Shown here: piece after piece, positions 2,660 through 62,284 of the stretch | Layout of the letters: every line of letters begins with the position of its first letter | Position numbering within the stretch: the stretch's first letter is position 1 | Assembly (NCBI GenBank): GCA_031423495.1 | Contig: JANPFP010000001.1 | Location: forward strand, 32,030 to 96,029 | Reading direction: 5' to 3' | Origin: Acidobacteriota bacterium | GTDB lineage: Bacteria > Acidobacteriota > Blastocatellia > RBC074 | Length of the DNA: 64,000 bases | Program-made: the position numbers and the translations under genes | The notes under the pieces: model-generated | Seen by the model: only the letters and a program-made list of their open reading frames with translations | Databases searched by the model: none | Told to the model about the DNA's origin: nothing

Positions 2660-3589
2660 ATGATTCAACTCAAACGTATTTTGTATCCAACTACTGCCTC
2701 GGCGACCGCGTTGCAAGACGGTGATGAAGCCTTGCATTACGCCATCGCGTTGGCGCGTGCTTATGGCGCGGAGTTGTTGCTCTGCCATTGCGTAGAGGCT
2801 ATGCCAATGGTCGCCGACGTAGGTTGGATGACCGCGCGGCAAGATACGCAAATGGCAGCGCGGTTGCGGGGCCTATTGCCTGCGAGTGATGTGCCTGCGA
2901 TCAAAGTGTTGCCCGCAATTAAAGTCTTGATTGAAGACGGCGATCCTGCGACGGAAATCCCGCGCCTCGCCGCCGAACATAACGTTGACTTGATCGTGAT
3001 GCGTTCGCGGCGGCGTCCGCGCGCGGCGGCGTTGTTAGGCTCGACGGCTGAGGCTGTGTGCCGCACTGCGCCTTGCCCGGTGTTGGTCACGCACGCAGAG
3101 GAACACGATTGGGTTAAGCCGCACGACGACACCATCGCGTTGCATCGCATCCTGGTGGCGCATGATTTTTCGAACGATGCGGAGTTGGCGTTTAACTACG
3201 GCATGCTGTTAGCACAGGAATATCAGGCCGAATTGCATTTGTTGCACGTGCTGCCTTTCGCGGCTGTGCCCAGCATGACGACGATTCCCGAAAGCCAAGC
3301 AAACGCGATGCATCAGGCCGCGCGGCGTTTGCAATCCGCCGTACCCGCCGAAACTTACCTGTGGTGCGAAGTCAAACATGCCATCCGCAACGGGCAGCCT
3401 TACCGCGAAATTTTGAGTTACGCCGAAGAGCAAAAAATTGACTTGATCTGTTTGGGCGTACACGGCGCGGGCTTTGCGATGCGCGCGTTGTTCGGCTCGA
3501 ACGCCGACCGCGTCTTGCGGCAAGCGCCATGTCCCGTGCTGATCGCACGTCCGCTGAAACCATTCATCAAAACCGGAGAAACATCATGA
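2660..3589 (+). CDS. universal stress protein, tandem UspA domains
   Basis: two Usp modules (..LLLCHCVE.. and ..LICLGVHGAGF..RVLRQAPCPVLIARP); 309 aa. Confidence 0.85.
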   Translation: MIQLKRILYPTTASATALQDGDEALHYAIALARAYGAELLLCHCVEAMPMVADVGWMTARQDTQMAARLRGLLPASDVPAIKVLPAIKVLIEDGDPATEIPRLAAEHNVDLIVMRSRRRPRAAALLGSTAEAVCRTAPCPVLVTHAEEHDWVKPHDDTIALHRILVAHDFSNDAELAFNYGMLLAQEYQAELHLLHVLPFAAVPSMTTIPESQANAMHQAARRLQSAVPAETYLWCEVKHAIRNGQPYREILSYAEEQKIDLICLGVHGAGFAMRALFGSNADRVLRQAPCPVLIARPLKPFIKTGETS

Positions 3590-4047
3590 AAATCTTACTG
3601 GCCGTTGACGGCTCAGATTACAGCAAGTTTGCCGTTGAGTCGGTCGCCGCGCGTCCGTGGCCGCCCGACAGCGAAGTGAAAGTGCTGTCGGCGATTGAAA
3701 TTCCCTTCACGCCGACGCCTGAAACCTGGTCGCTGCCTGACAGCTATTACGCGCAGATGGAAAAGAACGCGCGCGAAAGCGCCGTGCAAGCGACGCAGGA
3801 AGCCGCTGATCGTTTAGCGCAAAACAGTCCGTCGCAACTGCGCGTCAGCACGGCAACGGAATTGGGTCGCGCGCGCGACGTGATTCTCGACACGGCGGAA
3901 AAGTGGGACGCCGATCTGATTGTGATGGGTTCGCACGGATACAGCGCGATCAAACGCTTCATGCTCGGCTCGGTTTCGCACGTCGTGGCAACCCACGCCC
4001 ACTGTTCGGTCGAGATCGTACGCGAGCGAAAGGCAGCCCAATCATGA
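3587..4047 (+). CDS. universal stress protein, single domain
   Basis: MKILLAVDGSDYSKFAVE...IVMGSHGYSAIKRFMLGSVSHVVATHAHCSVEIVR; ATG overlaps the upstream stop. Confidence 0.85.
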
Positions 4048-4481
4048 TTTCAGAACTAGGCGAAAACGAAGCCCGTGCGTTGTTGCAACGCGGCACGCTG
4101 GGACGGCTGGGCGTATGCGAACCCATCCCCGATGACGAACACCACCGGCCTTACGTCGTACCGGTGAGTTATTGGTACGACGACAACTCGGTCTATGTGC
4201 ATTCGTTGAAGGGCCGCAAGGTTCGCGCGTTGCGCGCCAATCCGCACGCCTGTTTGCAAGTAGACGAAATCGAAAGCCCCTACGTCTGGCGCAGCGCACT
4301 GGCGTCCGTCCTTTATGAAGAAGTCACTGACGCCGCTGAACGCGACCGCATATTGTCGGAGTTATTCAAACGGCTGCCGCACCTGACGCCGGTCGAATCG
4401 CGCATGACCAAAGGGTTGGACGAAACCATCGTCTTTCGGTTGCGCCTGACCAGCGTCACTGGCGTCTTTGAAAAGTGGTAA
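4044..4481 (+). CDS. pyridoxamine 5'-phosphate oxidase-like FMN-binding family protein
   Basis: N-terminal EARALLQRGTLGRLGV motif typical of the PNPOx-like split-barrel family; ATGA overlap with upstream USP. Confidence 0.65.
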   Translation: MISELGENEARALLQRGTLGRLGVCEPIPDDEHHRPYVVPVSYWYDDNSVYVHSLKGRKVRALRANPHACLQVDEIESPYVWRSALASVLYEEVTDAAERDRILSELFKRLPHLTPVESRMTKGLDETIVFRLRLTSVTGVFEKW

Positions 4482-4494
4482 CAATCACCAAAAC

Positions 4495-4523
4495 TGTGGG
4501 GCAGGTTCTCAACCTGCCTCACA
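4495..4523. repeat. palindromic element tgtGGGGCAGGTT-ctc-AACCTGCCtcaca, copy 1 of a 3-member family, followed by a U-rich tract and RBS
   Basis: same core GGGCAGGTT/AACCTGCC recurs at 56635 and 63133. Confidence 0.55.
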
Positions 4524-4542
4524 AATTTTCCGAGGAGGAGTT

Positions 4543-4905
4543 ATGACCATGCCTATCGAACGCGCCGCGTGGAGCGGCTATGTGAAAGAATTCAATCAAC
4601 GTAACACCGCTCGCCCGACGCGGATGGAAGTCTTCGGCGAACTCGGCGCACAGGAAGCCGAACATGATTTACCCTTCAACGGGATCACGCTCGAAGCGGG
4701 CGGACTCGACGCACCCAAGTTGCAAATCATGCTCGGCGTGGCGGCTGCCAACGAACGCCACCTGACCCATACGATCACGCGCGTCACGCGCATCACGCCG
4801 AAACGCGCGGCGGACGGACGCGATGAAGTGCTGGAAATTCAAGACACCGACGGTAATCGCGTCTTGCTCAGTTTCACCGCGTTGCCTGAGTTGCTTTCTG
4901 CCTAA
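4543..4905 (+). CDS. hypothetical protein
   Basis: ORF with strong RBS gaggaggag 6 nt upstream of ATG; no family recognised with confidence. Confidence 0.55.
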   Translation: MTMPIERAAWSGYVKEFNQRNTARPTRMEVFGELGAQEAEHDLPFNGITLEAGGLDAPKLQIMLGVAAANERHLTHTITRVTRITPKRAADGRDEVLEIQDTDGNRVLLSFTALPELLSA

Positions 4906-5096: not shown

Positions 5097-5959
5097 ATGA
5101 GAACGATAGAGGAATTTCACCCACAGGCTTTTTGGCAACGACTGCTCGCCGCAATTGGTATCGCTTGCATTCTTGCCTTCAACGCCCAAGCACAAATTCC
5201 GACACCGCGACCAACACCGATACCGGTGCAGGTTCCGACACCGACACCGACACCGACACCAACACCAACGCCGACGCCCAAAGCAACGCCTGCGCTCAAA
5301 CCAGCAGCGCCAACGGGCGAAGATATCAACGAAGCCCGCGAGTTGTTAAGCGCGCTCGGTTTTTGGGTGATCTTTGCCGAAGAGAAAAAGGGCGGGCACA
5401 TCGAACAGAATCAAAAATTCGACACGTCCATGCGGCATTCGCTGATCGCGTTTCAAAAAATCACGGGGCGTAAGCGCACCGGTGTACTCACCGACGACGA
5501 GTTGGAAGCCTTGCGCAAGGCCAAACGCCACGAAGCCTTAGAGAGCGGTTACGCGCACATCGAAGTTGATCTCGCCCAACAAGTCTTACTCGTGGTGGAC
5601 AGTTACGGCGCGTGTTTGCGCATCCTGCCCATTTCATCAGGCAGCGGCGAGTGGTTCACCGAAGGCGGCAGAACGCGCCGCGCCGTCACGCCCGTGGGCG
5701 TTTCAAAGTCGAGCGCAAGATAGCGGGCTGGCGCAAAAGCGCGCTGGGCTTGCTCTATTACCCCAATTACATAGTTGACGGTATCGCCATTCACGGCAAC
5801 CCGCTCGTACCGCCGCAACCCGCCAGTCACGGCTGCATTCGCATTCCGATGTTCGCGGCCAAAGAGTTTTCTGAAATGGCGGTCATCGGTTTGCCGGTGA
5901 TCATTTATGAGAACAAGTCGCCGGTTGAGAAGCCGATACTGACTTTCGCTAAGCCATAA
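5097..5959 (+). pseudogene. L,D-transpeptidase (signal peptide, PT-repeat linker, PG-binding domain, YkuD catalytic domain) interrupted by a single -1 frameshift near 5695
   Basis: the two track ORFs 5097..5723 and 5612..5959 are consecutive parts of one Ldt: ..RAVTPVG in frame 1, then [11 protein letters not shown]...AIHGNP...SHGCIRIP in frame 2. Confidence 0.6.
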
Positions 5960-9589: not shown

Positions 9590-9708
9590 GGTCTGCCTGA
9601 GCGAAGAATAAAGGCTCTGCCTGAGCGAAATCGCGCATACAAAACAACACAACTGGGGAACCTTGCGCGGCTGACGGCGCAAAACCGACTTATCGCCATT
9701 TATCCGGG

Positions 9709-9725
9709 CTGGCACGAGGCTTGCC
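9709..9725 (+). promoter_or_regulatory. candidate sigma-54 promoter cTGGCACGaggcTTGCc upstream of Hsp20
   Basis: near-perfect match to TGGCACG-N4-TTGC; ~63 nt upstream of the ATG at 9787. Confidence 0.6.
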
Positions 9726-9786: not shown

Positions 9787-10338
9787 ATGCAAGCCCAAAC
9801 AGCGCTGGAAAAGAAACCGGCAACTAACGCAACTAGCCCCTTCTTTGTCGAAGCCGAGAAGCTCCTGGAAGAGATGAAGGAGGTTTCCCAATCCGTAGCC
9901 AAACGTGCTTACGAATTGTTTGATACGCGAGGCCGCGAACTGGGCCACGAACTCGAAGACTGGTTCCGCGCGGAATTTGAAGTCTTACGCTGGGTGCCCG
10001 TCGAGTTGAAAGAAGCGGACGGCAAATTCGTCGTGCGTGCCGAAGTGCCCGGCTTCAACGCCGCCGACCTCAAGATCAGCGTCGAACCCAAACAACTCAC
10101 CATCAGCGGCAAGAAAGAAGAGACGAAGGAAGAACCAAAAGAAGGGCCAAAAGAAGGAAAAGACGCGAATCGCTACTTCTCAGAATTTCGCGCGAATCAA
10201 TTCTGCCGCACGCTGAACCTGCCCAAAGCGGTGGATACGACACAGGCGCAGGCCGCGCTCAAAGATGGTGTACTCGAATTGACGTTGCCGAAAGCAGCGG
10301 TGAGTGAACCGGTCAACGTCTCCGTCAAACCCAATTAA
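9787..10338 (+). CDS. Hsp20/alpha-crystallin family small heat shock protein
   Basis: alpha-crystallin domain ([37 protein letters not shown]...GVLELTLPK). Confidence 0.85.
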
Positions 10339-17400: not shown

Positions 17401-17709
17401 CTCGTAGATTTCATTGAACTCAGATTGAAAGAAGGCATGCCGCTCGCCGAAGCCGTGATTGACGCAGGCGCAGTGCGCTTTCGCCCGATGATGCTGACGG
17501 CGGCGGCGGTCGTGGTCGGAGCCATCGTGATTTTGTTCGACCCGATCTTTCAAGGGTTGGCGATTTCACTGATGGCGGGCGAAATCGCTTCGCTGTTGCT
17601 GTCGCGCATGACCGTGCCGATTCTTTACTACCTGAGCGAACGAAAAAAACACCAAGCCGCAACGCACGACGACGTGATGCCAGTCGTGGCTTTGGGGCAA
17701 ACACATTGA
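14452..17709 (+). CDS. efflux RND transporter permease subunit (AcrB-like HAE1 signature)
   Basis: 1085 aa, 12-TM layout, TM4 motif [16 protein letters not shown]. Confidence 0.9.
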
Positions 17710-17726
17710 GCAGGAGCTTTGCATTT

Positions 17727-18176
17727 ATGAACGAACAACTTCCCTATTTTTATGACACGACCGTTGAATGGACGAACGCGCGACAAGGCACGTTGAGCGC
17801 GCCTGAGTTGACTTCGCTAACCATCGCAGCGCCGCCTGAATTCAAAGGCCACGCGGGGCTGTGGACGCCCGAACATCTTTTCGTCGCGTCGGTCAATGCG
17901 TGCTTTATGACTACGTTTCTGGCAATTGCGGAGTTGTCGAAACTCGAATTCGTCAGCTTCACCTGCAGCGCGCAAGGAAAGCTGGAAAAGGCCGAATCGC
18001 ATGGCTTCAAAATCACTGAAGTCGTGCTGCATCCGAAACTTGTCATCCGTCACGCGCACGACCTTGCGCGAGCCGAACGAGTTTTGGGAAAGACCGAACG
18101 CAACTGCCTCATCTCTAATTCAATCCATACGGTCGTCAGGCTTGAATCCGAAATTAGCTTAGCACCTGCCAGCTAA
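17727..18176 (+). CDS. OsmC/Ohr family peroxiredoxin-like protein
   Basis: GLWTPEHLFVASVNACFMTTF and ...NCLISNS motifs of the OsmC family. Confidence 0.75.
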   Translation: MNEQLPYFYDTTVEWTNARQGTLSAPELTSLTIAAPPEFKGHAGLWTPEHLFVASVNACFMTTFLAIAELSKLEFVSFTCSAQGKLEKAESHGFKITEVVLHPKLVIRHAHDLARAERVLGKTERNCLISNSIHTVVRLESEISLAPAS

Positions 18177-19822: not shown

Positions 19823-19838
19823 CGGCACAGTGCTTGCA
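19823..19838 (+). promoter_or_regulatory. candidate sigma-54 promoter gCGGCACagtgcTTGCA upstream of the small-protein/holin-family operon
   Basis: GG-N10-GC with TTGCA; ~69 nt upstream of the ATG at 19906. Confidence 0.5.
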
Positions 19839-45970: not shown

Positions 45971-45999
45971 CTCAGCCTCCTTTTTGCAGGGGATTGCGA

Positions 46000-46926: not shown

Positions 46927-47000
46927 ACGCTTGTTCCTCGCTTAACGTTTGCTATCCCGTGCGACCACAATCGGCTTTGATGGCGGAGCTGGGCGCGCAC

Positions 47001-47659: not shown

Positions 47660-48073
47660 TCAGTGATGATGCTGTTGATAGTTGATGAGATGGCCTTCGG
47701 CGTCACCGACGAATTGAATCTCTCTCACGATCGGAGTCGCGATACCAAACCCAGCGCCGTGATAGCTGATCTTAAACGCAGCCGCTTTGTCACGCGCGAC
47801 CGGCTCGCAATGAAAGGTCGTCACGAGTTTGCCGCGTACGCCTTTATCGTAGGTGTAAACGAAGAAGCATGGCTTGCCCTGTTCCATCAACGCGCCGTCA
47901 TGCACGATAAGGTAATCACCACTTAACAAGGCTCCATGCAAAGCCACTGTGCGTTCAAAACGCACTACGACTTGCTGTTTCTCTTCGATCACCGGGTTGG
48001 CGAAAGCAGCCGTCGCAACTCCGAATGAACAAACCAACGCAACTGACATCAGAAATTTAGAAAAGCTATTCAT
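47660..48073 (-). CDS. hypothetical secreted protein
   Basis: signal peptide, C-terminal HHH; RBS aaaggagg. Confidence 0.5.
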   Translation of the reverse strand: MNSFSKFLMSVALVCSFGVATAAFANPVIEEKQQVVVRFERTVALHGALLSGDYLIVHDGALMEQGKPCFFVYTYDKGVRGKLVTTFHCEPVARDKAAAFKISYHGAGFGIATPIVREIQFVGDAEGHLINYQQHHH

Positions 48074-48394
48074 AACGATACCTCCTTTACGTTTTGGACG
48101 CGCACCGGAAGGCCTCTAACGAGGTCGTAATGATGCGAAAGAAAAGTCTCTTTCTGTTTTGCGCTCCGATGTCGCGTCCGTCTTGCTTGCTGCAAATAAC
48201 ACGCCAACAAAAATCAGCCTGCCTTTGAGGAATCTCGCGCAAGCCGCGCGTCAATTTGCGCTAAATTCGGTAAGGCTGCGCAGTTCAAAGCGGCGATTCA
48301 CTCACAATGCACGCGGCATCACGATTGCACTGCTGAACTGGTGAAGCGCTGATTAGCGGCGAATTTCGTTTATCACTAGAGGAGTAAAAACAAT

Positions 48395-48828: not shown

Positions 48829-49023
48829 CTCATTCATAGTGATGAGGCCTCGGCCATTTTCTAAACTCTGTGTCGGCTCCGTCTCGGCCCTCATAGCCGG
48901 GAACCATCCTTTGTGAGTGATGGTGAAATTTCCGCATCACATTCAACCAACCCGCCGGGAACGATACTTGCTGCGGCATTTTACGTAGTTACATTTCATC
49001 AAAAATAAATCACGAGGATAAAG

Positions 49024-50931
49024 ATGGGCGAGCATAACATTTCTTCCATGCACGACCTGCAACAATCACAGCAGTTCATGCATGCCTTACTCAACGATCT
49101 GACTGCGTTAGAGCGAATGATTGAAAGCGGACGTATCGAAACCGGTGTGCGTCGCATAGGCGCTGAACAGGAGATGTTTCTGGTGGATGCCGGAATGCGC
49201 CCTGCCTCAGTCGCGCCGCAGGTATTGGATGCGTTGAATGAGCCGCGCCTGACGACTGAAATTGGACGCTTTAACCTCGAAGCCAATTTATCACCGCAAC
49301 TATTTGCTGGCGGATGTTTGCGCGCGATGGAACAAGAGTTGATTGAATTGGTCGCCTTGGCGCGTCGCGGCGCAGCAATGCAACAAGCTGACATTGTGTT
49401 GACCGGCATCTTGCCAACGATTCGACAGTCTGATCTGGCAATCGAAAACCTCTCGCCTGGCCCGCGATACGAGGAACTGAATCAAGTGTTGCAACGATTG
49501 CGGGGCAATCATTTTAATTTACACATCAAAGGGCTAGACGAATTGCAACTCACGCACGATAACGTCTTGCTCGAAGCCTGTTGCACGAGCTTCCAGGTGC
49601 ATTTGCAAGTAGGCCCCTCGGAATTCGCACAGCTTTATAATTTGGCACAGGTCATCACTGCGCCGGTGTTGGCCGCTGCCGCCAATGCGCCATTACTGAT
49701 GGGGCATCGGCTTTGGCACGAGACACGGATCCCGCTGTTTCAAAACGCGGTGGATGAACGCTCTGACGCGCGGCAGTTACGCTCACATCCGCCGCGCGTC
49801 AGTTTTGGCGAAAGCTGGGTCAAGGATTCAGTACTCGAAATTTTCCGCGAAGAAATCGCACGCTTTCGCGTCGTGCTGACCAAACACATAGAAGAAGACG
49901 CACTAGCGGTTTTAGCGTCAGGCACCTTGCCTGAATTGACGGCGCTCCGTTTGCATAACGGTACGGTTTGGCGCTGGAACCGCCCTTGTTATGGCGTGGC
50001 TGGTGGCATCGCGCATTTGCGCATCGAAAACCGTGTCATTCCTGCGGGGCCTTCCATCATTGATGAAATGGCGAATGCGGTATTCTTTCTGGGCCTGATG
50101 ACGGCCTTGCCGGAAGAGTATGGGGATGTCACGCGCCGACTAAGTTTTGATGAAGCCAAAGAAAATTTCTTCGCTGCTGCGCGACACGGCTTAAAAGCAC
50201 AACTCAACTGGATCGGCGGGCAAAGCCGGCCTGCTGCAAACTTGATTCTCGAACATCTTTTGCCGCTGGCGCGCGCCGGATTGAAATCAGTCAACATCCC
50301 AAGCGCCGACATTGACCGCTATCTGGGCGTGTTGGAAGAACGCGTTATCCGTGACCAAAACGGAGCGCAATGGACGTTGCGCTCGCTCAGCGCGCTCGGC
50401 CAACAAGGCACGCGTGAACAAAGACTCGCGGCAATAACCTCTGCGATGGTGCGCAATCAACGCAACGACAAGCCAGTCTGTGAGTGGGAACTTGCTCAGT
50501 TGGATGGCGCGCTTAAGTGGAAACACAACTACCAAACAGTTGGTCAGTTTATGTCTACCGATCTTTTCACCGTGCGGCCTGATGACTTGGTTGATTTGGC
50601 TGCGTGCGTGATGGATTGGCGGCACGTACGCCACGTTCCCGTCGAAGACGATGAAGGCCGTCTCGTTGGCCTTGTCTCGCATCGTGAACTGCTGAAATTA
50701 GTCGCACAAGGGACTGCTCGCAATGCTCAAGTTACCGTCAGCGAGGTGATGAAGCCGCAGCCATTCACCGTCACGCCGCAAACAGCTACGCTCGACGCCA
50801 TCGCGATAATGCGGCAACAAGGCATAGGCTGCCTGCCTGTGGTAGAAAACGGCAAACTCGTAGGATTAATCACTGCGCACGATTTTCTGCGGCTTTCAGC
50901 CGAGATATTGGAAGCAGAGTTAAAGTCATAA
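49024..50931 (+). CDS. glutamate-cysteine ligase family 2 (carboxylate-amine ligase) fused to a tandem CBS-domain pair
   Basis: GCL2/YbdK-like core ([11 protein letters not shown]...), C-terminal two CBS domains ([12 protein letters not shown].., [12 protein letters not shown]..). Confidence 0.7.
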
Positions 50932-52121: not shown

Positions 52122-52247
52122 CGAATGAACCTTACCACCTCTCTTTTCTCGGTTGTCTGCAAACACAATGCCCAACTCATTTTGCGGACTTCTGCTCAAT
52201 GAATTTGCCTTTCTGAATGCAAATTGCGCGGAATCTCCCAATAAATG

Positions 52248-52264
52248 CTGGCATCTGATTTGCT
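52248..52264 (+). promoter_or_regulatory. candidate sigma-54 promoter cTGGCATctgatTTGCT upstream of pentaheme cytochrome
   Basis: GG-N10-GC; ~65 nt upstream of the ATG at 52328. Confidence 0.5.
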
Positions 52265-52327
52265 AGCTTTCGCCATATATCCATTTGAAAAATTCGCTCA
52301 CCTGTTGGGTAGCAAAGGAGAAACATC

Positions 52328-53137
52328 ATGTTCAAACGATTGATCGTATTAGTTGCATTGCTGCCGGGTATATTCATGCTCGCCTCCAACCAACTTGAAA
52401 AAGCGGCAGCTCAGGATGTATTGGCTGCCTTCAAAGGCAATAATTGTGTCACCTGTCACGTCAGGTTGACTGCGCCATACAAAGTAACTTCGCGCTATGC
52501 TGAATGGCACATCTCAACGCACATGGATAAAAAAATTGGCTGCGAGAAATGTCATGGCGGAGACGCTGCGGTAGCGGATGCAGCTAAAGCTCATGTCGGT
52601 GTTCAATCAGCGACAAATCCAGACAGCAAATTGCACGCAAAGAATCTGGCGACGACCTGCAATGCCTGCCACAAAGAAATCACCAGCTCATTCGTCGAGA
52701 GCAAGCACTATCAAAATTTGACTGGCGCCGGACTTGGGCCGAGTTGCATTACCTGCCACGGGCATATGGCTTCTGAAGTGATTTATACGCCCGCCCAAAC
52801 CGCCAAACTTTGCGCCAGTTGCCATGATTCAACGAACGCGCTGATGCCCAAACGCCCTGAAATTCCCGGCAAAGCTGAGGTGACGATGCAAGCCATCCGT
52901 CGCGCCAATATGGTTACGCTTTGGGCTGAGAGATTGGTGAATGAAGCCAAGGAAAAAAAGATGGAGATCGCGGATGCTGAAAAAGAAATGAAGATCGTCC
53001 GCGCCATGATGGCCGAATCTGTGATCGCCTGGCACAGCTTCAACTTGGATGTTGTGCAAAGAAAAGCTGACGCTGCATTCGAAACCGGCACGAAGTTAAA
53101 AGACGAATTGCGCGCCAAGCTTTATCCGAACCGCTAA
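52328..53137 (+). CDS. membrane-anchored pentaheme c-type cytochrome
   Basis: 5 CxxCH (CVTCH, CEKCH, CNACH, CITCH, CASCH); N-terminal TM/signal anchor; paralog at 62313..63110. Confidence 0.8.
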   Translation: MFKRLIVLVALLPGIFMLASNQLEKAAAQDVLAAFKGNNCVTCHVRLTAPYKVTSRYAEWHISTHMDKKIGCEKCHGGDAAVADAAKAHVGVQSATNPDSKLHAKNLATTCNACHKEITSSFVESKHYQNLTGAGLGPSCITCHGHMASEVIYTPAQTAKLCASCHDSTNALMPKRPEIPGKAEVTMQAIRRANMVTLWAERLVNEAKEKKMEIADAEKEMKIVRAMMAESVIAWHSFNLDVVQRKADAAFETGTKLKDELRAKLYPNR

Positions 53138-53199
53138 TGACTCAATTAGCCTGCGGTTATTTGCGACCACTTCGCACTCTCTGCCACCTACAAACTAAG

Positions 53200-53245
53200 C
53201 ACAGCCAAACCATTTGGCGCGTGGTTTGGCTGTGTTCAATTTTAG
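53200..53245 (+). terminator. rho-independent terminator: 13-bp perfect stem cacagccaaacca / tggtttggctgtg plus U-tract
   Basis: read directly; 60 nt after the cytochrome stop. Confidence 0.7.
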
Positions 53246-53316
53246 CCAACCAAAAGCCGATTCCTTACATTGAGAAATCGCTTGCGGAATAGTCCCCAAC
53301 TTTGCCTTTTTCGCGG

Positions 53317-53332
53317 TGGTACGAGTGTTGCA
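53317..53332 (+). promoter_or_regulatory. candidate sigma-54 promoter TGGTACgagtgTTGCA upstream of decaheme cytochrome gene
   Basis: matches TGGCAC-N5-TTGCA at 14 of 16 positions; ~85 nt upstream of the ATG at 53416. Confidence 0.55.
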
Positions 53333-53415
53333 CTCCCCGTAGTCGAACGACTCAATTGAGTCAAAATCCGCAGCAATTATCCTTTTGCTGTAACTCTTGG
53401 ATGAGGTACTCATAA

Positions 53416-54462
53416 ATGAAAGCAATCAAACTCATCTGCGTTGTATTTTTTGGACTGGGCGTATTACTGCTGGCACTTTCGCCACGCATTGCCCAGTTCT
53501 CGTTATTCAACCGTTCTGTCGTGACTGCTAAGGCTTTACCACCTGACGACTTGAGCAAATACGTTGGCAGCGATTCGTGCGCAGAATGCCACGGAGCCGA
53601 GGTCGCCCGTTATGAACTGACGGCGCACAGCAAAACCAAACTCATCAGTGACAAGGTGAATTTGCGCGGTTGCGAATCGTGCCACGGCGGCGCGCGCGAT
53701 CACGTAGCCTTTTATCTGGACATTCAAAAAGCGAACGAAGCGGGCAAGGAAGCCGAGGCGGAAAAGTTAATGAACGATACCGTGAAAGCTGCGGCGGCCT
53801 CGCTATCTTCGTTCAAGAACATGCCTGCCGCGCAGGCCACGGCGACTTGTTTGAAATGCCACGAAGGCACGCAAGGCCGCAGCGAAGAACGCTTCAATTA
53901 CCGACGCGGCGAACACGCGCGACACGGCGTTTCGTGCAACGATTGTCACTCTTCGCACGAACCCAAACGCACTGAGTTTCTGTTAAAAGCGCCTGAGCCG
54001 GGCTTGTGTTACACCTGCCACGCCGAACAGAAAGCCTCGTTCGCCAAACCTTTCCATCACAAAGTGCCCGAAGGCGGCATGAACTGTTCTGATTGCCACA
54101 ATCAGCACGGCGGATTCGCGGGCAAGTCGTTGCGCAATTCGGTCAACGGCGATTCGGCTTGCGTGAAATGCCACGCCGATAAACAGGGGCCGTTCGTGTT
54201 TGAGCATGCACCGGTCAAAGTCGAAGGCTGTCAGGCTTGCCATACGCCGCACGGCTCGACCAACCCGAAATTGCTGACGCGCAACGTCGTCAGGTTCCTG
54301 TGCCTTGAATGCCACTCGAATACACCTGAGTTGACGGGCGACGGAGCCGGGCTGGGTACGCAATCGCCGACGGGGCACGACCTGACACAACCGCGTTATC
54401 AAAATTGCACGGTCTGCCACATTGACATTCACGGCTCAAACAAAGAGCGGTTCTTCCGCTAA
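53416..54462 (+). CDS. periplasmic decaheme c-type cytochrome, MtrA/MtoA/PioA-like
   Basis: 348 aa with exactly 10 CxxCH (CAECH, CESCH, CLKCH, CNDCH, CYTCH, CSDCH, CVKCH, CQACH, CLECH, CTVCH); signal peptide; followed by a large OM beta-barrel gene. Confidence 0.8.
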
Positions 54463-54480
54463 GAGGAAAGGAGGCTGACA

Positions 54481-56622
54481 ATGAATATTCAAAGTAAATC
54501 AATGCAACGGTGGCTCTCCTGCTTGTTCGTGGGAGCCTGCACAACACTTTGCTTCTCCGGTGGCGCATGGGCGCAATCCGTCGAGAAGGCTGAAACGAGC
54601 CAGCAAGCACGTGAGGCTGACAGCGAACTCGAACGCGCCAAAGCCATCGTCAACAAACCCAAAGAGAACAAACCCGTAAAGACCGAAACAGGCCGTACGT
54701 GGGGCGTTTATTCGACGACCAGTTCGCTGGAAGTCGGCTATCGCTTCGTCAATGCGCGCGGCAGCGAAGCACGTTATCTGTCGGACGTGAATGTGCGCGA
54801 TGGTTTGCGCGTGCTGGAATCCACTGTGGATATGCGCGCGCGACCGGGAACTGGTTTGCTCTTCGATCACATGCGCGCCGAAGTACACAACGCGGGCGGC
54901 GATCAAAGTCAGAGCTTTGCGTTGCGTATGGACAAAACCAAATGGTATCGCTTCGATAGCAACGTCAGGCGGTTTAATTATTATCGTTCGCCGGGGCCGA
55001 ATTTCGCGTTGGGCTTTCGCGATTACGATTTGCGGCAACAGGTGTCTGATTACAGCTTGCGGTTGTTGCCGCAACGCGCCGTGCGCTTCAACGTGGGTTA
55101 TGCCCGCAGCATGGCGAAAGGCCGTTATAACCCGACCTACAGCTTTCAACGCGACATCTTTCAGTTGTTCGGCGATACGCGCTGGGAAGCCAACGATTAC
55201 CGGCTCGGAATGGACGCCACTTATCGCAAGTGGGATTTTAACGTAGAGCAACTTTATCGCACCTTCCGTAACGATCCCGACATCAACTCACGACCGGGCG
55301 GCGATTTGGGTTTCAACCCGACGGACGGCGGCAGACTTACGCTGCTTGATCGGGCGACGCCACAACGTTCGACGGCGGCGGTCATTCGCGGCAGTGTGCG
55401 CGGCAGTGTGGCGGAACGCGTGCATGTCGTGTTACGCGGCTTGCACGATGAAGAGCGAATGCGCGCGGCTTATTACGAAATTGCCAGCGGCAGAAACAAC
55501 AACAACGTTGCCATGCCGAGTTACGTGCTGACGCTGCCCGCTCCCGGCGCGAATGTCACTAGGCCGAACAGCCGCGTAGACGCCGCTGTCAGTTTCGACA
55601 TCAATGATCATCTGACCTTGAGCAATACGTTTGGCTATACCGCGTTCAAGATTCTCGGCAACACCGACGTGACGGCGACGACCGTGTTGCAACCCGCGAC
55701 GGGGCCGCCAACGACTACGACGACGCGGCAAGTGTTCACGAATTACATCACCGACCTGACTTCCTATTCCAACACGCTGGCGTTGGACATCAGTTATGGC
55801 CGCAAGTTCAGCGCCAATTTAGGCTGGCGCGCCATGCAACGTGATGTTTCGCTGGCGAATAACTTTCTCACGGCGACCAGTCCGATTTCGGCCACCAATC
55901 CGCAAATCGGGAGCGAAAGCGAATCTATCGGCACGCACGCTTTCATCGGCGGTCTGCGGGTGCGTCCGACTGAGAACACCAGCTTTATGTTCGACATCGA
56001 ACAGGGGCAGAACAACAACTCGTTCGTGCGTATCAATCCACTTGATTACCTGCGCATCCGCGCGCGCGCGCAAGTGAAAGCGACTGATAAGTTAGGTTTC
56101 ACAGGCACATTCACTTCGACGGATCGCACCAATCCTACGCCGCAGGTGAACAACGAATCTGACGCGCGTAGTTACACGGTGGCAGTGAATTGGGAACCCA
56201 AAGAGCGCGTGTGGCTTGATGCCGGATACGACTATCACGACCTGTTTGCGACGGGGAACATTCTTTACACGCTCAATGTCGGCGGCACGAACCAACGCAT
56301 TTCGGGCCGGTCGCTTTATTACGCGCGCATCAATTCAGTTTATTTGAACACGCGGTTGGGGTTGAGCAAACGTCTTGATCTGATGATGTTCTATTACTAC
56401 ATCATGGATCGCGGCATTCCGTCGGTCAGTTTGGGGCCGAACGACAACGCCAATGCGCTGCCACTCAGACGCCACAATCCTGAAGCCCGCCTCGCTTATC
56501 GCTTCACCAACCACGTGACCGGCAATCTGAGTTACCGACATTACAGCTACAACGAGCGCGATTTCTTCGTGCAGGATTATCGTGCAAACATCCTCACGAG
56601 CAGTCTGCGTTTCACTTTTTAA
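54481..56622 (+). CDS. MtrB/PioB-like outer membrane beta-barrel (porin partner of decaheme cytochrome)
   Basis: 713 aa, signal peptide, alternating amphipathic strands, C-terminal ...LRFTF aromatic terminus; size and synteny match MtrB/MtoB. Confidence 0.6.
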   Translation: MNIQSKSMQRWLSCLFVGACTTLCFSGGAWAQSVEKAETSQQAREADSELERAKAIVNKPKENKPVKTETGRTWGVYSTTSSLEVGYRFVNARGSEARYLSDVNVRDGLRVLESTVDMRARPGTGLLFDHMRAEVHNAGGDQSQSFALRMDKTKWYRFDSNVRRFNYYRSPGPNFALGFRDYDLRQQVSDYSLRLLPQRAVRFNVGYARSMAKGRYNPTYSFQRDIFQLFGDTRWEANDYRLGMDATYRKWDFNVEQLYRTFRNDPDINSRPGGDLGFNPTDGGRLTLLDRATPQRSTAAVIRGSVRGSVAERVHVVLRGLHDEERMRAAYYEIASGRNNNNVAMPSYVLTLPAPGANVTRPNSRVDAAVSFDINDHLTLSNTFGYTAFKILGNTDVTATTVLQPATGPPTTTTTRQVFTNYITDLTSYSNTLALDISYGRKFSANLGWRAMQRDVSLANNFLTATSPISATNPQIGSESESIGTHAFIGGLRVRPTENTSFMFDIEQGQNNNSFVRINPLDYLRIRARAQVKATDKLGFTGTFTSTDRTNPTPQVNNESDARSYTVAVNWEPKERVWLDAGYDYHDLFATGNILYTLNVGGTNQRISGRSLYYARINSVYLNTRLGLSKRLDLMMFYYYIMDRGIPSVSLGPNDNANALPLRRHNPEARLAYRFTNHVTGNLSYRHYSYNERDFFVQDYRANILTSSLRFTF

Positions 56623-56634
56623 TAACCCAATTCG

Positions 56635-56661
56635 GTAGGGCAGGTTACTAACCTGCCCTAC
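56635..56661. repeat. palindromic element GTAGGGCAGGTT-acta-AACCTGCCCTAC, copy 2, between beta-barrel and monoheme cytochrome genes
   Basis: perfect 12-bp arms; followed by aatttcggaggaaaatccATG. Confidence 0.6.
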
Positions 56662-56679
56662 AATTTCGGAGGAAAATCC

Positions 56680-57033
56680 ATGAATTCGACTGCCAAAAAA
56701 ACTGTGGCCGCACTCTTAGCCACCGTAGCTTTGACACTCTCTTTTTATGCGTCCCTGTCGGCTCCTGAGGCTGAAGCTTTCCAGAGCGTCAAGAGTTTGT
56801 ACGCCTCGAAATGTGCGGTTTGCCACGGTAACGACGGAAGCGCGAACACAGCCAAAGGCAAGGAATTGAAAGTTCGTAACTTGAAATCTGAGGAATTCAA
56901 AAAAATGCCCGACGCCAAAGCTATGGAAGTTATGCTCAAGGGCAAGGGCAAGATGGAAGGCTATGAAAAAACTCTCGGCAAGGAGAAGTGCGAACAATTG
57001 CTCGCCTATTGCCGCGAGCTTTCAAACAAATAA
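56680..57033 (+). CDS. periplasmic monoheme class-I cytochrome c (MtoD-like)
   Basis: signal peptide; single CAVCHG; ~117 aa. Confidence 0.7.
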   Translation: MNSTAKKTVAALLATVALTLSFYASLSAPEAEAFQSVKSLYASKCAVCHGNDGSANTAKGKELKVRNLKSEEFKKMPDAKAMEVMLKGKGKMEGYEKTLGKEKCEQLLAYCRELSNK

Positions 57034-57161
57034 GCTGTTACCTGCATCGGAATAGATACGGGTTGGTGAGTTGTTGCGTTCCATCCTGGCAGTCGCGCAA
57101 TTCGCCAGCCCTTTTATTATTTGCCGATTATTTCTGCCGATTATTTCTGGAGAACATTGCT

Positions 57162-57791
57162 ATGGGAGCTAATATAACCATTGTGATTGCCGTCATCCTG
57201 TTCAGCATCGCTCTGATTGCCTGGCTGATCTGGCGTCCGTCAATAACCGCCACGCGCGGAGGCAAGATGCTGGCCTTCGTTACGTTGCTGGTGTTTCCAC
57301 TGTTAGCCGGTGGCCTGGGCGTCAATGAACAACTGGCGCATTCCAAGACGACCAATTTCTGTCTGTCGTGCCACGTGATGGAAGATTACGGCAAGAGTTT
57401 GCACGTAGATGATCGCAGCCTCGTCCCCGCCATCCATTATCAGAACAACCTCGTGCCGCGCGACAACGCCTGTTTTACCTGCCACACCGATTACACGATG
57501 TTCGGCGATATGAATGCGAAGTTGCGCGGCTTGAAACACGTATACGCTTATTACATTGGCAAGCCGCAGCAGCCGATCAAGTTGTATACGCCTTACAACA
57601 ACCGCGAATGTTTGCATTGCCATTTGGGCGCGCGCTCTTACCAGGAATCAGAAGCGCACACCAAAAAGCCGCAACGTCTTGAACAAATGCGGCTCAATCA
57701 ACTGAGTTGCAGCACTACGGATTGCCATAACAACGTCCACAACATCAAAACGCTGAAAGAGGCGTCCTTTTGGAAGGAGTCCGGCAAATGA
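57162..57791 (+). CDS. NapC/NirT family membrane-anchored multiheme cytochrome (CymA-like quinol dehydrogenase)
   Basis: N-terminal TM helix; CLSCH, CFTCH, CLHCH plus an atypical CSTTDCH; spacing typical of NapC/NrfH. Confidence 0.7.
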   Translation: MGANITIVIAVILFSIALIAWLIWRPSITATRGGKMLAFVTLLVFPLLAGGLGVNEQLAHSKTTNFCLSCHVMEDYGKSLHVDDRSLVPAIHYQNNLVPRDNACFTCHTDYTMFGDMNAKLRGLKHVYAYYIGKPQQPIKLYTPYNNRECLHCHLGARSYQESEAHTKKPQRLEQMRLNQLSCSTTDCHNNVHNIKTLKEASFWKESGK

Positions 57792-59383: not shown

Positions 59384-59487
59384 AAACTACCTCCGCCGCT
59401 TTCTTGAGCAATCGTCAAGCCGTGAGTGTGGCTGCGTGATTTCGCGCAAGCCACGCTCATCGTTGCGCAATATGACACAGCTTTAGG

Positions 59488-59504
59488 CTGGCATCGCACT
59501 TGCA
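59488..59504 (+). promoter_or_regulatory. candidate sigma-54 promoter cTGGCATcgcacTTGCA upstream of USP
   Basis: TGGCA-N..-TTGCA with canonical spacing; ~25 nt upstream of the ATG. Confidence 0.5.
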
Positions 59505-59527: not shown

Positions 59528-59977
59528 ATGAAAATTCTTGTAGCAGTAGATGGTTCAGCAAGCAGTCAAGCCGCAGTGGCTTCGGTCGCGGCGCGTCCGT
59601 GGCCGACGGGCAGCGAAATCAAAATTCTGGCAGTCGCCGAGTTGCACATTATTCCTACGCAGGAGTTTGGCATGTTGCCGCCGAGCTATTACGACAGCGC
59701 GGCGGATGCGGCGCATACGTTGGCGCAGGCTGCGGTCAAAGCGGCAACGGACGTAATCCAACATCGCACGACGACCGGTTTAACGGTGGCGACCGATATC
59801 AAGACGGGCTTCGCCAAATCGGTCATTCTCGATGAAGCCGAAAAGTGGGGCGCTGATTTGATCGTATTGGGTTCGCACGGATACAAAGGCTTGCAACGCT
59901 TTTTGCTCGGCTCGGTTTCGCAAGCGGTCGCCGCGCATGCGACGTGTTCGGTCGAAATCGTGCGGGTGAAAAAGTAA
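59528..59977 (+). CDS. universal stress protein, single domain
   Basis: MKILVAVDGSASSQAAV...LIVLGSHGYKGLQRFLLGSVSQAVAAHATCSVEIVR. Confidence 0.85.
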   Translation: MKILVAVDGSASSQAAVASVAARPWPTGSEIKILAVAELHIIPTQEFGMLPPSYYDSAADAAHTLAQAAVKAATDVIQHRTTTGLTVATDIKTGFAKSVILDEAEKWGADLIVLGSHGYKGLQRFLLGSVSQAVAAHATCSVEIVRVKK

Positions 59978-59993
59978 CAACTATAGAGCGCAG

Positions 59994-60110
59994 ACAAATT
60001 AGACAGGATTGACAGGATTTTCAGGATTCACAGGATAAGGAAAACGCTGAAAAGTCCATGTCTATTGCAGAATCCTGTCTATCCTGAAAATCCTGTCTAT
60101 CCTGCCTAAT
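59994..60110. repeat. AT-rich inverted repeat of ~35-bp arms built from four 9-mer iterons (gacaggatt / tcaggattt / cacaggata) with a ~32-bp loop
   Basis: left arm agacaggattgacaggattttcaggattcacaggata; right arm is its approximate reverse complement aatcctgtctatcctgaaaatcctgtctatcctg. Confidence 0.6.
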
Positions 60111-60132
60111 TCTGCTTGAGAGCGAAAACGTT

Positions 60133-61305
60133 ATGGCGCGCATTGTCATTCTCGGCGGGGGCTTCGCCGGTGTCGTCACCGCCGAAGCCCTCGCGCAACA
60201 ACTGGGCAGCGAACACGAAATCACGCTGATTGCGCGACAACGCGAATTCACGTTTTATCCGGCGCTGGTGCGGCTGGCCTTCGACCAATGTCATGTTGAA
60301 GACGTGTTCTTTGATCTCGAGGGTTCATTGCTTTCGCAACGCGTCAAGTTCATCCAGGCCGAGATTCTCTATCCTGACCCACTCAGCGAAACGGTCGTAA
60401 TTCGTCAAGCAGAGCGTGAACGCGCTGTGCCTTACGATTATTTGGTGATGGCGTTGGGGCGACGTCTGGCGACCCGCGAAATCAAAGGCTTCGACGCGCA
60501 CGCGCATCATCTGTTGTCAGTAGGTGCGGCGTTGCGCTTGGGCGAAGCCGTCAAACATTTTCACGCAGGCAACGCCATCATCGGATATTGCCCCGAAGCG
60601 CGGCTGGTCGTACCGGTGTTTGAAACGGCCTTCGCCTTAGATCGCGTATTGCGCGAACGCGGCGAACGTGAGGCTACGCAAATCAGCATCTTGAGTCCGG
60701 GCAAGCTCGGCGAATTTTTAGGCGGTGAGGAATTGCTGCCCGCTTTGCAAAAGGCGCTAGCGAAACACGACATCACTGTAACGACTGAGTTTCCGGTTGA
60801 CTTGATCGGTGACCGCGAAATCTGGGCGCGCGACAATCGGCGAATGCCTTACGATTTGTTGATGTTGATTCCGCCCTTCGCCGGGCCGGATGAAGTGGCT
60901 TATCGCGGCTTGACCGACGAGACCGGCTTCGTCCGCGTAGACCGACAGATGCGCGTGCGCAGCGCGCGCAACGTTTACGCCGCCGGAGATTGTGTGAGTT
61001 TGATCGGGCCGAAGATGGGCCACCTCGCCGTGCTGCAAGCCGATGTCGTCGCCGCCAACCTCATCGCCGAACTCAGTGGACGCGAACCCGAAACCCGCTA
61101 CGAACACGAACTAACGCTCATCATCAACGAAGATGGCGAGGATTCACTTTTCTTTCACAAGGAACTTTGGGATGGCGGGCTGGGGACGATTCGACAAGGC
61201 CGTTTTTGGAGTTGGGCGAAACAAGCCCATACGAATTACTGGGCGCGAATGCACAAACTCAGTCCGATTGAAAAAGCTAACCACCCTTCTGAAAGCGACT
61301 CCTGA
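60133..61305 (+). CDS. FAD-dependent pyridine nucleotide-disulfide oxidoreductase (sulfide:quinone oxidoreductase / NDH-2-like)
   Basis: Rossmann ILGGGFAGV motif, second FAD/NAD site YAAGDC; 390 aa. Confidence 0.65.
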   Translation: MARIVILGGGFAGVVTAEALAQQLGSEHEITLIARQREFTFYPALVRLAFDQCHVEDVFFDLEGSLLSQRVKFIQAEILYPDPLSETVVIRQAERERAVPYDYLVMALGRRLATREIKGFDAHAHHLLSVGAALRLGEAVKHFHAGNAIIGYCPEARLVVPVFETAFALDRVLRERGEREATQISILSPGKLGEFLGGEELLPALQKALAKHDITVTTEFPVDLIGDREIWARDNRRMPYDLLMLIPPFAGPDEVAYRGLTDETGFVRVDRQMRVRSARNVYAAGDCVSLIGPKMGHLAVLQADVVAANLIAELSGREPETRYEHELTLIINEDGEDSLFFHKELWDGGLGTIRQGRFWSWAKQAHTNYWARMHKLSPIEKANHPSESDS

Positions 61306-61414
61306 AGGCAGAAGAAAACATGGAAATAAGGGAACAAACGGAAGTTGCTCTATTTTTTCATTTTTCGTCTGCTCCGTTATTTCTGTCTGTTCCGTACTCT
61401 CAAAAAAGCCTTCG

Positions 61415-62284
61415 TCATCCGCGCACCACTTCAACAGAACATTCTGCGCGTGCCGCTACGCCCGCCGAAACGCTGCCGATCATGATGCGTTCAAAGCGTC
61501 CCAGACCGCGTCCGCCGATGAAGATCACATCGGCTTGCCAACGCTCTGCTTCGTCACAAAGCAGCTTTTTCGGTTCTTCGTCTTTCACAACTGACGAAGC
61601 GTATAAGCCCGTCGTACTCAGCAATGCTTCGCCGTGTTGCATCATGTCTGAGATGCGGGTGCGTTCATCGGCGAGCCATTTTTCGAGTGTCAACATTGTT
61701 TGTTGCGATGAGGCGGGCAACGTATAAGGCGCACCGTTCACCAGTCGCACCTCGCTGCCTTGCGGCCAGTGGCGCGCGGCGACCGCCTTGATGGCGGCTT
61801 CCGCGCCCGGCGAACCGTCTACGCCAACGATGATGCGGGCGGGTTCATCGGGCTGGCGCGCGTGGGTGCGAATGCGAGCGACGTGAACGGAACAACGCGC
61901 TTCGTGCAAAACCTTTTGCGAGACGCTGCCGAAAAAGAAGCGCCCCAACGCCGTGCGTCCGTGTGAACCGATGACGATCAAGTCGGGCTGCCAAACATCG
62001 GCTTCGGCCAGCAAGACGCTGGCGGGCGAACCAAACTCGGTGCGCGCGTCTATGTTCCATTCAGGAAAAGCGAGCTCCAGCGCGGTGCGCGCACGACGCG
62101 CGAGCGCCAGGTTTTCTTGATCGTGCGTAATGCCCTGATACGTCTCAAGCGCAGAAGGCGGCGGCAGCCACGTTTCGGAGACCGCCAACACGAGCGCTTC
62201 GGCGTGGAGCGGCAACCCCGCGCGCGGCAAATCAGCCAACGCGGCATCGGCGCATTCAGAGCCGTCATAAGCGATTAGAATTTT
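61415..62284 (-). CDS. universal stress protein, tandem UspA domains
   Basis: MKILIAYDGSECADAAL...[36 protein letters not shown] and second module; 13 nt downstream of the cytochrome gene. Confidence 0.85.
   Translation of the reverse strand, partial: KILIAYDGSECADAALADLPRAGLPLHAEALVLAVSETWLPPPSALETYQGITHDQENLALARRARTALELAFPEWNIDARTEFGSPASVLLAEADVWQPDLIVIGSHGRTALGRFFFGSVSQKVLHEARCSVHVARIRTHARQPDEPARIIVGVDGSPGAEAAIKAVAARHWPQGSEVRLVNGAPYTLPASSQQTMLTLEKWLADERTRISDMMQHGEALLSTTGLYASSVVKDEEPKKLLCDEAERWQADVIFIGGRGLGRFERIMIGSVSAGVAARAECSVEVVRG

Follow-up and report, generated by a model that had tools for sequence, protein, structure and literature searches.

The window examined here, a stretch of 64,000 nucleotides (64 kb) from the genome of an Acidobacteriota bacterium of the class Blastocatellia (contig JANPFP010000001.1, positions 32,030 to 96,029), opens with the genes of an NtrC-family sigma-54 enhancer-binding protein (EBP) and of a PAS histidine kinase, followed by an operon that starts with two universal stress protein (USP) genes and by five more USP genes among chaperone, redox and cytochrome genes. 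Sigma-54 promoters, a palindrome upstream of them, its phasing, the conservation of both and their synteny with the two-component pair are read directly from the DNA, and make it probable that the window is the core of a sigma-54/EBP regulon conserved across the Blastocatellia and devoted to surviving stress or energy limitation.

A preliminary description of the window had counted seven USP genes, five of them with tandem domains, and Pfam profile search bears this out: all seven open reading frames (ORFs) match PF00582 (Usp) with 98-199 bits, well over the cut-off of 24 bits, and five of the proteins consist of two USP domains. The start of the second gene lies one base earlier than described, at 3586 instead of 3587, as in the gene call of an independent assembly, and the gene overlaps the stop codon of USP 2660 by 4 nt. 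The ATP-binding motif G-x2-G-x9-G-[ST] of the UspFG/MJ0577 type is present in 10 of the 12 USP domains, the exceptions being the N-terminal domain in each of the two group-A USPs (2660 and 31173), which are 54% identical to each other. The other tandem-domain proteins (32166, 42704 and 62299) form a second group, about 48% identical mutually, to which the single-domain USP 59528 is about 38% identical. Recent paralogy of the tandem USPs, which the same description had proposed to check, is ruled out by these identities (26-54% overall): the groups are old and, since only 26-32% of residues are identical between them, the USPs are not recent duplicates. Solved structures nearest to the tandem USPs of the window include Rv2623 of Mycobacterium tuberculosis (3CIS/2JAX), with E values of 1e-7 to 1e-9. 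Assuming 50 USP genes in a genome of 4-6 Mb, the Poisson probability of seven in 64 kb is 2e-6 to 2e-5, and below 0.0013 once corrected for all windows of the genome under the same assumption; as far as the assumed count holds, this suggests a local enrichment of USP genes relative to the whole genome.

Promoters of the -24/-12 type precede most of these genes. The consensus TGGCAC-N5-TTGCW, in which GG and TGC are obligatory and no more than two of 11 positions may differ, finds 35 matches in the window, 20 of which lie inside the 8.8% of it that is non-coding (binomial P=6.5e-13), and 18 of these 20 intergenic sites have a gene start on the same strand 5-150 nt downstream. Five USP genes (2660, 31173, 32166, 42704 and 59528) have an intergenic promoter of their own. 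The list of 18 also includes the promoters of Hsp20a, rubrerythrin, the DksA-YwiC-PFOR-DHOD unit (PFOR, pyruvate:ferredoxin oxidoreductase; DHOD, dihydroorotate dehydrogenase-like), CBS/GCS2, the DUF883-like gene, the gene of a secreted 137-aa protein, the GerW and YvlD operons, the P-type ATPase, both cytochrome units and the 60-aa ORF at 31400, and one of the 18 sites weakly precedes an L,D-transpeptidase gene.

Motif discovery in the 100 nt upstream of the window sites yields a 16-bp palindrome, TGCGGAAATTTCCGCA, that is TGCG-N8-CGCA with an AT-rich centre, and 12 or 13 of the 18 promoters have it upstream. All ten window matches scoring at least 15 are intergenic, with a motif trained on the window itself; position weight matrices (PWMs) built only from distant relatives (loci L009 onward) and scanned back on the window give 16 palindrome matches, 12 of them intergenic, and 12 promoter matches, 11 of them intergenic. 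From the centre of the palindrome to the GG of the -24 element the distances in the window are 18, 18, 18, 28, 28, 30, 38, 50, 50, 50, 60, 70, 82, 82 and 82 nt, and in relatives they cluster around 18, 28, 39, 50, 61, 71, 82, 92 and 103 nt. Their best period in relatives is 10.7 bp (Rayleigh p about 1e-30, a value that overstates independence, many of the promoters being orthologous). The palindromes at 31251, 32069 and 48226 stand between divergent sigma-54 promoters and are phased with both, the centre of that at 31251-31266 being 18 nt away from one GG and 70 nt from the other. Such dependence on the helix face is a prediction of enhancer-type activation, and argues against an activator of the sigma-70 class II type.

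Some sites are arranged less simply. The -24/-12 site before the P-type ATPase, AGGCACGTCAGTTGCC at 23833-23848, reads as such an element on either strand, and because the neighbouring palindrome (23874-23889) is downstream of its plus reading and upstream of its minus reading the target is ambiguous: it may be the ATPase and/or the divergent response regulator gene at 22940-23758. A very strong sigma-54-like site on the minus strand, CGGCACAGTCATTGCG at 20122-20137 (PWM score 19.5), is directed towards the plus-strand promoter at 19823. An AAA_33/zeta-like kinase gene (18173-19774) begins 363 nt downstream of it, a 69-aa ORF would run antisense to it, and it could be a long-leader or an antisense promoter. 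In the interval from the end of the kinase gene to the putative enhancer of USP 2660 there is an inverted repeat (2443-2565) with arms of 45 nt, each holding three tandem GGAGTTATA 9-mers; it is unique in the window, none being expected by chance, and degenerate forms of it occupy the same place in the close relatives L005-L007.

Promoter and palindrome are both found again, independently of the window, in other genomes. An alignment of group-A USPs, scanned over one genome per species, gave 80 loci (1.09 Mb), nearly all labelled Blastocatellia, Pyrinomonadaceae, Chloracidobacterium or Acidobacteriota, the closest being 94% identical. The 200 nt before the USP orthologue contain the element GGYAY-N6-TGC in 71 of the 80 (median distance 57 nt; 0.03 expected per locus), and these 71 promoters keep GG/GC and their exact spacing across 50-94% protein identity: the GG, the C and A that follow it and the TTGC are invariant in 71 of 71, and GGCAC is found in 69. 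Site and promoter at 2577-2617 are conserved in L004-L008, and the promoter is present in the genus or family of cultured relatives such as Chloracidobacterium and Pyrinomonas. The stricter GGCAY-N5-TTGC has 180 sites in the relatives against about 17 expected. Apart from USPs, the genes that they precede include those orthologous to Hsp20a, the P-type ATPase, CBS/GCS2, PNPOx, DksA and the genes of the DUF883-like and the 137-aa protein. De novo motif discovery in the regions upstream of strict sites (176 regions of 150 nt) returned TGCGGAAATTTCCGCA with 16.3 bits, the same palindrome as in the window, and it occurs within 170 nt upstream of 118 of 179 strict sites (66%) compared with 3.3% of random 170-nt windows. 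The gene of the 137-aa protein has its own sigma-54 site in 9 of 12 relatives, and CBS/GCS2, which in many of them is directly upstream of the EBP gene, in 12 of 17. The same type of promoter also precedes, in relatives, genes for pyruvate phosphate dikinase (PPDK), an ADP-forming acetyl-CoA synthetase/GNAT fusion, cytochromes c, BON, archease and a Crp-like protein. Gene order is kept as well: EBP-PAS kinase-USP-USP-PNPOx-DUF5335, as in the window, recurs across the class, frequent arrangements being CBS/GCS2-EBP-kinase-(PNPOx-DUF5335)-USP-USP or EBP-USP-USP-PNPOx-hybrid kinase, and blocks of PFOR, DHOD, Hsp20 and CBS/GCS2 adjoin the second USP paralogue.

Two relatives (L010, 12217-12426, and L016, 8326-8541) encode, after a strict sigma-54 site, a 70-aa protein with DnaJ-type CxxCxGxG zinc-finger repeats that has no homologue in the window. 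One contig labelled 'uncultured Heliobacteriaceae' (CAYWDW010000579.1, L011) carries an EBP-kinase-USP locus of the Blastocatellia type with its sigma-54 promoter, and is probably mis-binned.

The regulatory pair itself stands at the left edge of the window. The EBP has a sigma-54 interaction domain (PF00158, E=6e-68), AAA_lid_14, HTH_8 and the tail of a Response_reg domain; its full-length orthologue in L004 (7105-8619) has 504 aa and the order receiver domain (REC)-AAA+-HTH. At least 28 of the 80 relatives have an orthologue of 65-87% identity next to their USP operon, and the window holds no other EBP gene, further regulators encoded there being a hybrid kinase at 20908 and a response regulator at 22940. 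Of the NCBIfam equivalogs AtoC scores highest for the EBP, with 369 bits where 714 are required; nor is any such threshold reached by the AAA_33 kinase, by the ATPase or by the CBS/GCS2, PNPOx and DUF385 proteins. The core of the kinase has ZraS as its closest solved structure. Four cysteines of its PAS domain (C32, C63, C69 and C80) are conserved across ten members of its subfamily, and such a domain may be an Fe-S or thiol redox sensor, so that the kinase would sense redox state or oxygen; in other Blastocatellia the EBP is paired with kinases of a second subfamily, whose PAS domain lacks them. Among the kinases of the window only PAS and no GAF domain was detected, and the window has no gene of the NarL/LuxR type or of the CRP family.

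Table 1. Genes and regulatory sites of the window. Positions are those of the 64-kb stretch; palindromes are matches to TGCGGAAATTTCCGCA.
Feature	Position	Strand	Remarks
NtrC-family sigma-54 enhancer-binding response regulator	9-1313	+	N-terminus cut at window edge
Cytoplasmic PAS histidine kinase	1317-2441	+	PAS_9/PAS_4, HisKA, HATPase_c; starts 4 nt after EBP gene
Palindromic upstream site TGCGCGAATTCCCGCA; sigma-54 promoter CGGCACACACCTTGCA	2577-2592; 2602-2617	+	before USP 2660 operon
Operon USP-USP-PNPOx-DUF5335	2660-4905	+	gene order repeated in many Blastocatellia loci
Tandem USP, group A	2660-3589	+	PF00582
Single-domain USP	3586-4047	+	PF00582
Pyridox_ox_2 (PNPOx-like)	4044-4481	+	Pfam
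DUF5335	4543-4905	+	last gene of USP 2660 operon
Upstream sites; sigma-54 promoter	9622-9637, 9654-9669; 9710-9725	+	before Hsp20a
Hsp20a (Hsp20/DUF2934)	9787-10338	+	Pfam
OsmC-like	17706-18176	+	Pfam; overlaps end of RND efflux operon by 4 nt
Sigma-54 promoter	19823-19838	+	before 69-aa ORF, YvlD and 80-aa ORF (unit 19823-20763); no palindrome detected
Phage_holin_4_2/YvlD	20169-20534	+	Pfam
Quasi-palindromic -24/-12 site AGGCACGTCAGTTGCC; palindrome TGCGCAAAATCACGCA	23833-23848; 23874-23889		before P-type ATPase
Type-II P-type cation ATPase	23930-26455	+	Pfam
Spore_YtfJ/GerW	29324-29695	-	Pfam
Sigma-54 promoter	30161-30176	-	before 145-aa membrane ORF, Spore_YtfJ/GerW and 168-aa ORF (unit 28668-30176)
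Tandem USP, group A	30247-31200	-	PF00582; likely start 31173
Sigma-54 promoter	31227-31242	-	USP 31173
Common palindrome	31251-31266		between the divergent promoters
Sigma-54 promoter	31328-31343	+	60-aa ORF
60-aa ORF	31400-31582	+	overlaps 3' end of rubrerythrin gene; without homologue; coding status uncertain
Rubrerythrin	31554-31952	-	Pfam
Sigma-54 promoter	32013-32028	-	rubrerythrin
Common palindrome	32069-32084		between the divergent promoters
Sigma-54 promoter	32094-32109	+	USP 32166 and AMP-binding gene
Tandem USP	32166-33083	+	PF00582
Truncated AMP-binding gene	33098-33826	+	after USP 32166
Hsp20b, second Hsp20	35217-35693	+	Pfam
Palindromes; sigma-54 promoter	35805-35820, 35848-35863; 35893-35908	+	before DksA-YwiC-PFOR-DHO_dh-like
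DksA/TraR	35929-36264	+	Pfam
YwiC	36285-37082	+	between DksA/TraR and PFOR
PFOR	37085-40672	+	Pfam
DHO_dh-like	40669-41700	+	Pfam
Tandem USP	41805-42719	-	PF00582; likely start 42704
Weaker -24/-12 site TGGAACAACAGTTGCC	42795-42810	-	USP 42704; no palindrome over threshold
Secreted 137-aa protein	47660-48073	-	behind promoter 48191-48206
Sigma-54 promoter	48191-48206	-	137-aa protein
Common palindrome	48226-48241		between the divergent promoters
Sigma-54 promoter	48314-48329	+	DUF883-like
DUF883-like, 109 aa	48395-48724	+	faint match, E=0.06
Palindrome; -24/-12 site	48921-48936; 48957-48972	+	before GCS2-like/CBS-pair gene
GCS2-like/CBS-pair protein	49024-50931	+	CBS pair; GCS2 match weak
Pentahaem cytochrome	52328-53137	+	first sigma-54 and palindrome unit of 52183-57791
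Decahaem cytochrome	53416-54462	+	start of second sigma-54 and palindrome unit
713-aa outer-membrane-barrel-like protein	54481-56622	+	second unit
Cytochrome c, monohaem	56680-57033	+	second unit
NapC/NirT-like protein	56988-57791	+	second unit
Palindrome; sigma-54 promoter TGGCATCGCACTTGCA	59433-59448; 59489-59504	+	before single-domain USP 59528
Single-domain USP	59528-59977	+	PF00582
Tandem USP	61415-62299	-	PF00582
Pentahaem cytochrome	62313-63149	-	13 nt upstream of USP 61415-62299
57-aa ORF, 8 Cys	63180-63353	-	fits the 'metallothionein-like ORF' of the preliminary description
178-aa zinc-ribbon-like ORF	63353-63889	-	co-oriented run 61415-63889

Nearly all of the companion genes listed in the preliminary description are recovered by Pfam (Table 1), the DUF385/F420H2_quin_red match being marginal (23.5 bits against a cut-off of 22) and that to DUF883 faint. 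Its pairing of two USP genes with the two pentahaem cytochromes or their neighbourhood survives only in part: 62313 and 61415 are 13 nt apart, and the nearest USP gene to the paralogue at 52328 is 6.4 kb away. The two pentahaem proteins are 44% identical and have five CxxCH motifs each. The promoters of the cytochrome units and of USP 59528 read TGGCAT/TGGTAC, compared with CGGCAC at the group-A USPs. As a whole, the genes from 52328 to 57791 resemble a porin-cytochrome cluster, a hint that this member of the Blastocatellia may be capable of extracellular electron transfer.

The AMP-binding gene codes for 242 aa, corresponding to the N-terminal 230 of 384 profile positions, and is truncated rather than misassembled, since an identical product is called in an independent Logan assembly (L003). 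The L,D-transpeptidase appears split over two overlapping frames, one (5097-5723) with PG_binding_1 and the other (5612-5959) with the catalytic YkuD part; L004 has the split too, and it may reflect a frameshift or a pseudogene. An apparent likeness of the N-terminus of the 60-aa ORF at 31400 to HPF/RaiA was unsupported by frame translations and by BLAST against the ORFs of relatives. Where a 365-aa ORF without family match (45883-46980, plus strand) and a 308-aa ORF with HHH_8/HHH_5 and a PolX-like N-terminus (46000-46926, minus strand) overlap in antisense, the latter is probably the real gene. GC content is even over the window (0.50-0.61), which has no tRNA and no Rfam RNA family; given this uniformity, the lack of tRNA and a neighbourhood kept within the class, an island acquired by horizontal transfer is unsupported.

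The regulon that we favour would work in three steps. The kinase would phosphorylate the EBP; the latter would then bind TGCGGAAATTTCCGCA, always on the same side of the helix and either ahead of a -24/-12 promoter or between two divergent ones; and, once bound, it would remodel the sigma-54 RNA polymerase and so turn on some 13-18 transcription units in the window. A promoter with the palindrome precedes about 24-26 genes of the window, and a sigma-54 site that lacks it about 10 others. The predicted output comprises six of the seven USPs, of ATP-binding type, Hsp20, rubrerythrin, the PNPOx-like flavoprotein, CBS/GCS2 and the DksA-YwiC-PFOR-DHOD unit, together with membrane stress proteins, the porin-cytochrome-like multihaem cluster and possibly the cation P-type ATPase. 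Judging from these products, its most likely role would be to let otherwise aerobic heterotrophs outlast a limitation of energy or oxygen, by growth arrest and protection, by a pyruvate-based, ferredoxin-linked metabolism and by alternative disposal of electrons. With PFOR and the ADP-forming acetyl-CoA synthetase, pyruvate could serve as a source of ATP in the absence of respiration, rubrerythrin would protect against peroxide, and the multihaem cytochromes with the barrel-like protein could form a route for electron disposal; it is because these four (PFOR, the synthetase, rubrerythrin and the cytochromes) are in the gene set that oxygen or energy limitation is favoured as the trigger. One may go further, tentatively, and suppose that Blastocatellia, a major class of aerobic soil bacteria, hold a class-wide dormancy or anoxia programme of an origin separate from that of DosR, in which a four-Cys, possibly Fe-S, PAS kinase would sense oxygen or redox state and, by way of an EBP with the unusual GAFTDA loop and the helically phased palindromes, turn on an island of about 35 genes that unites ATP-binding USPs, chaperones, substrate-level energy conservation through PFOR and a porin-cytochrome conduit for extracellular electrons; we regard this broader picture as possible, and as a good deal less than probable.

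Several observations weigh against the favoured regulon or the role assigned to it. The sigma-54 wiring asserted in the preliminary description is strongly supported for six of the seven USPs (3586 being presumably served from 2660) and for most companions, and is unsupported for OsmC, Hsp20b, DUF385 and USP 61415, for which the window has no sigma-54 promoter. OsmC, lacking one, probably belongs to the RND efflux operon and not to the regulon; for Hsp20b the site is absent in the window and in six orthologues, leaving its membership unsupported; and the run 61415-63889 has no canonical GG/GC promoter in the 111 nt up to the window end. At five of the 18 promoters no palindrome is detectable, and more than one EBP may act. 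In place of the canonical GAFTGA, the EBP has the loop GSFTDA here and in L004, and GAFTDA in L012: F and T are kept, and the second G is replaced by an Asp that is conserved in the orthologues examined. The rpoN gene is absent from the 64-kb window. The spacing of 18 nt between palindrome and GG at three USP promoters, seen also in relatives of 88-94% identity, is unusually near for an enhancer, and these sites might act differently or bind another protein. The promoter statistics from relatives overstate independence in so far as many of the promoters are orthologous, and the label of hypoxia or dormancy is taken from gene content.

The main rival to oxygen or energy limitation leaves the circuit as it is and replaces its trigger by general starvation, stationary phase or desiccation and rehydration. 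USPs, Hsp20, DksA, YvlD, the DUF883-like protein, BON and YtfJ are typical of general or stationary-phase stress, Blastocatellia are plentiful in arid soils, and the second kinase subfamily paired with the EBP does without the four cysteines; PFOR, rubrerythrin, the ADP-forming acetyl-CoA synthetase, PPDK and the multihaem cytochromes, however, indicate a metabolism at low oxygen, and the kinase subfamily of the window keeps its four-Cys PAS domain. We take such a trigger to be a serious possibility, though not the likely one. It is less easy to believe, and on the whole rather unlikely, that several EBPs drive these promoters and that the window is a mosaic of small, adjacent sigma-54 regulons. 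The palindrome is indeed missing at five window promoters and at 61 of 179 strict sites in relatives, the cytochrome and USP 59528 promoters differ from those of group A as described above, and further regulators are encoded at 20908 and 22940; but 12 or 13 promoters, those of the cytochrome units and USP 59528 included, have the palindrome and its phasing in common, and there is a single EBP gene in the window.

The close spacing raises another question, namely whether the palindrome, centred near -41, could be bound by a class II activator or repressor of sigma-70 promoters, CRP/FNR-like or otherwise, the -24/-12 elements being incidental. At three USP promoters its centre, about 18 nt upstream of the GG, would be at about -42 from the predicted start, its 5-N6-5 geometry is like that of CRP-family sites, and in one relative a Crp-like gene stands behind the same type of promoter. 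A class II site is nevertheless rejected by the invariant GG/GC and exact spacing of the 71 orthologous promoters and by the position of most palindromes in relatives, 50-100 nt upstream and helically phased like enhancers; no CRP-family gene is present in the window, and we consider this explanation very improbable. That the USP genes are clustered by chance, or as an artefact of duplication, with no functional coupling is hardly credible at all, given a Poisson probability of at most 2e-5 even with 50 USPs per genome, paralogues as old as these and the conservation of their promoters and synteny.

Acidobacteriota are among the most abundant bacteria of soil, and how they persist through anoxic, dry and nutrient-poor periods is poorly understood; few of their regulons have been defined, to our knowledge. 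What the locus offers is a concrete putative circuit, with a kinase, an EBP, a 16-bp site, 13-18 promoters and a list of genes, recurring across a class. The models of motif and promoter can be used to map the regulon in any Blastocatellia genome and to read metatranscriptomes. The presence of PFOR and of the porin-cytochrome-like cluster suggests an unrecognised anaerobic capacity in presumed aerobes.

Among the known systems near to it are the NtrC-family two-component sigma-54 systems AtoSC, ZraSR and NtrBC, with which it shares a REC-AAA+-HTH_8 regulator, a ZraS-like kinase core, palindromic upstream activating sites, helical phasing and the -24 GG/-12 GC promoter. It differs from them in the GSFTDA loop, in its USP/Hsp20/PFOR/cytochrome content, in having some sites that abut the -24 element and in reaching no equivalog cut-off. 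A link between sigma-54 and USPs has precedent in a 2025 in-silico survey of Planctomycetia, where COG0589 (UspA) genes are enriched among predicted sigma-54 targets (PMC12316311); that survey, however, concerns another phylum, gives no EBP, enhancer motif or clustered island, and does not mention Acidobacteriota (PMC12316311). Literature searches gave no paper that connects Acidobacteria or Blastocatellia with USPs or with sigma-54 regulons.

In content and layout the window resembles survival islands of actinobacteria. The DosR regulon of M. tuberculosis (DosS/DosT-DosR) comprises about 50 genes, with the two-component system beside a USP gene, and includes several tandem USPs, hspX, ctpF, the CBS-pair protein Rv2626c, nitroreductase and flavoprotein types and ferredoxin-linked functions (PMC3177182, PMC5069765); its sites are tandem, helically phased palindromes common to divergent genes (PMC3177182). 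Tandem USPs, Hsp20, a P-type ATPase, CBS and flavin/nitroreductase types recur in the window, a likeness at the level of Pfam families only, the USPs of the two being only distantly related (E 1e-7 to 1e-9), and nothing in the DosR regulon corresponds to PFOR, DksA, the multihaem cytochromes or the GCS2-like domain. In the OsdK/OsdR region of Streptomyces coelicolor (SCO0167-SCO0221), 8 of 11 USP genes lie beside the two-component system that controls them, together with genes of redox and pyruvate metabolism, e.g., pyruvate phosphate dikinase (PMC5069765). The window matches it in having a USP island and, in its relatives, PPDK behind a sigma-54 promoter, whereas the OsdR region has a regulator of the DosR type, a GGGACC-type box, a nitrate reductase and no sigma-54. 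DosR, for its part, is of the NarL/LuxR type and works with sigma-70-type promoters and haem-GAF kinases, unlike the NtrC-type AAA+ EBP, the -24/-12 promoters, the four-Cys PAS kinase and the unrelated site sequence found here. With no NarL-type regulator, no haem-GAF kinase and promoters of the -24/-12 type, the regulon of the window is thus a functional analogue of DosR/OsdR and not a member of their family, which suggests that sigma-54 can also support, by convergence of regulon architecture, a survival island of USP, Hsp20 and redox genes of the kind seen in Mycobacterium and Streptomyces.

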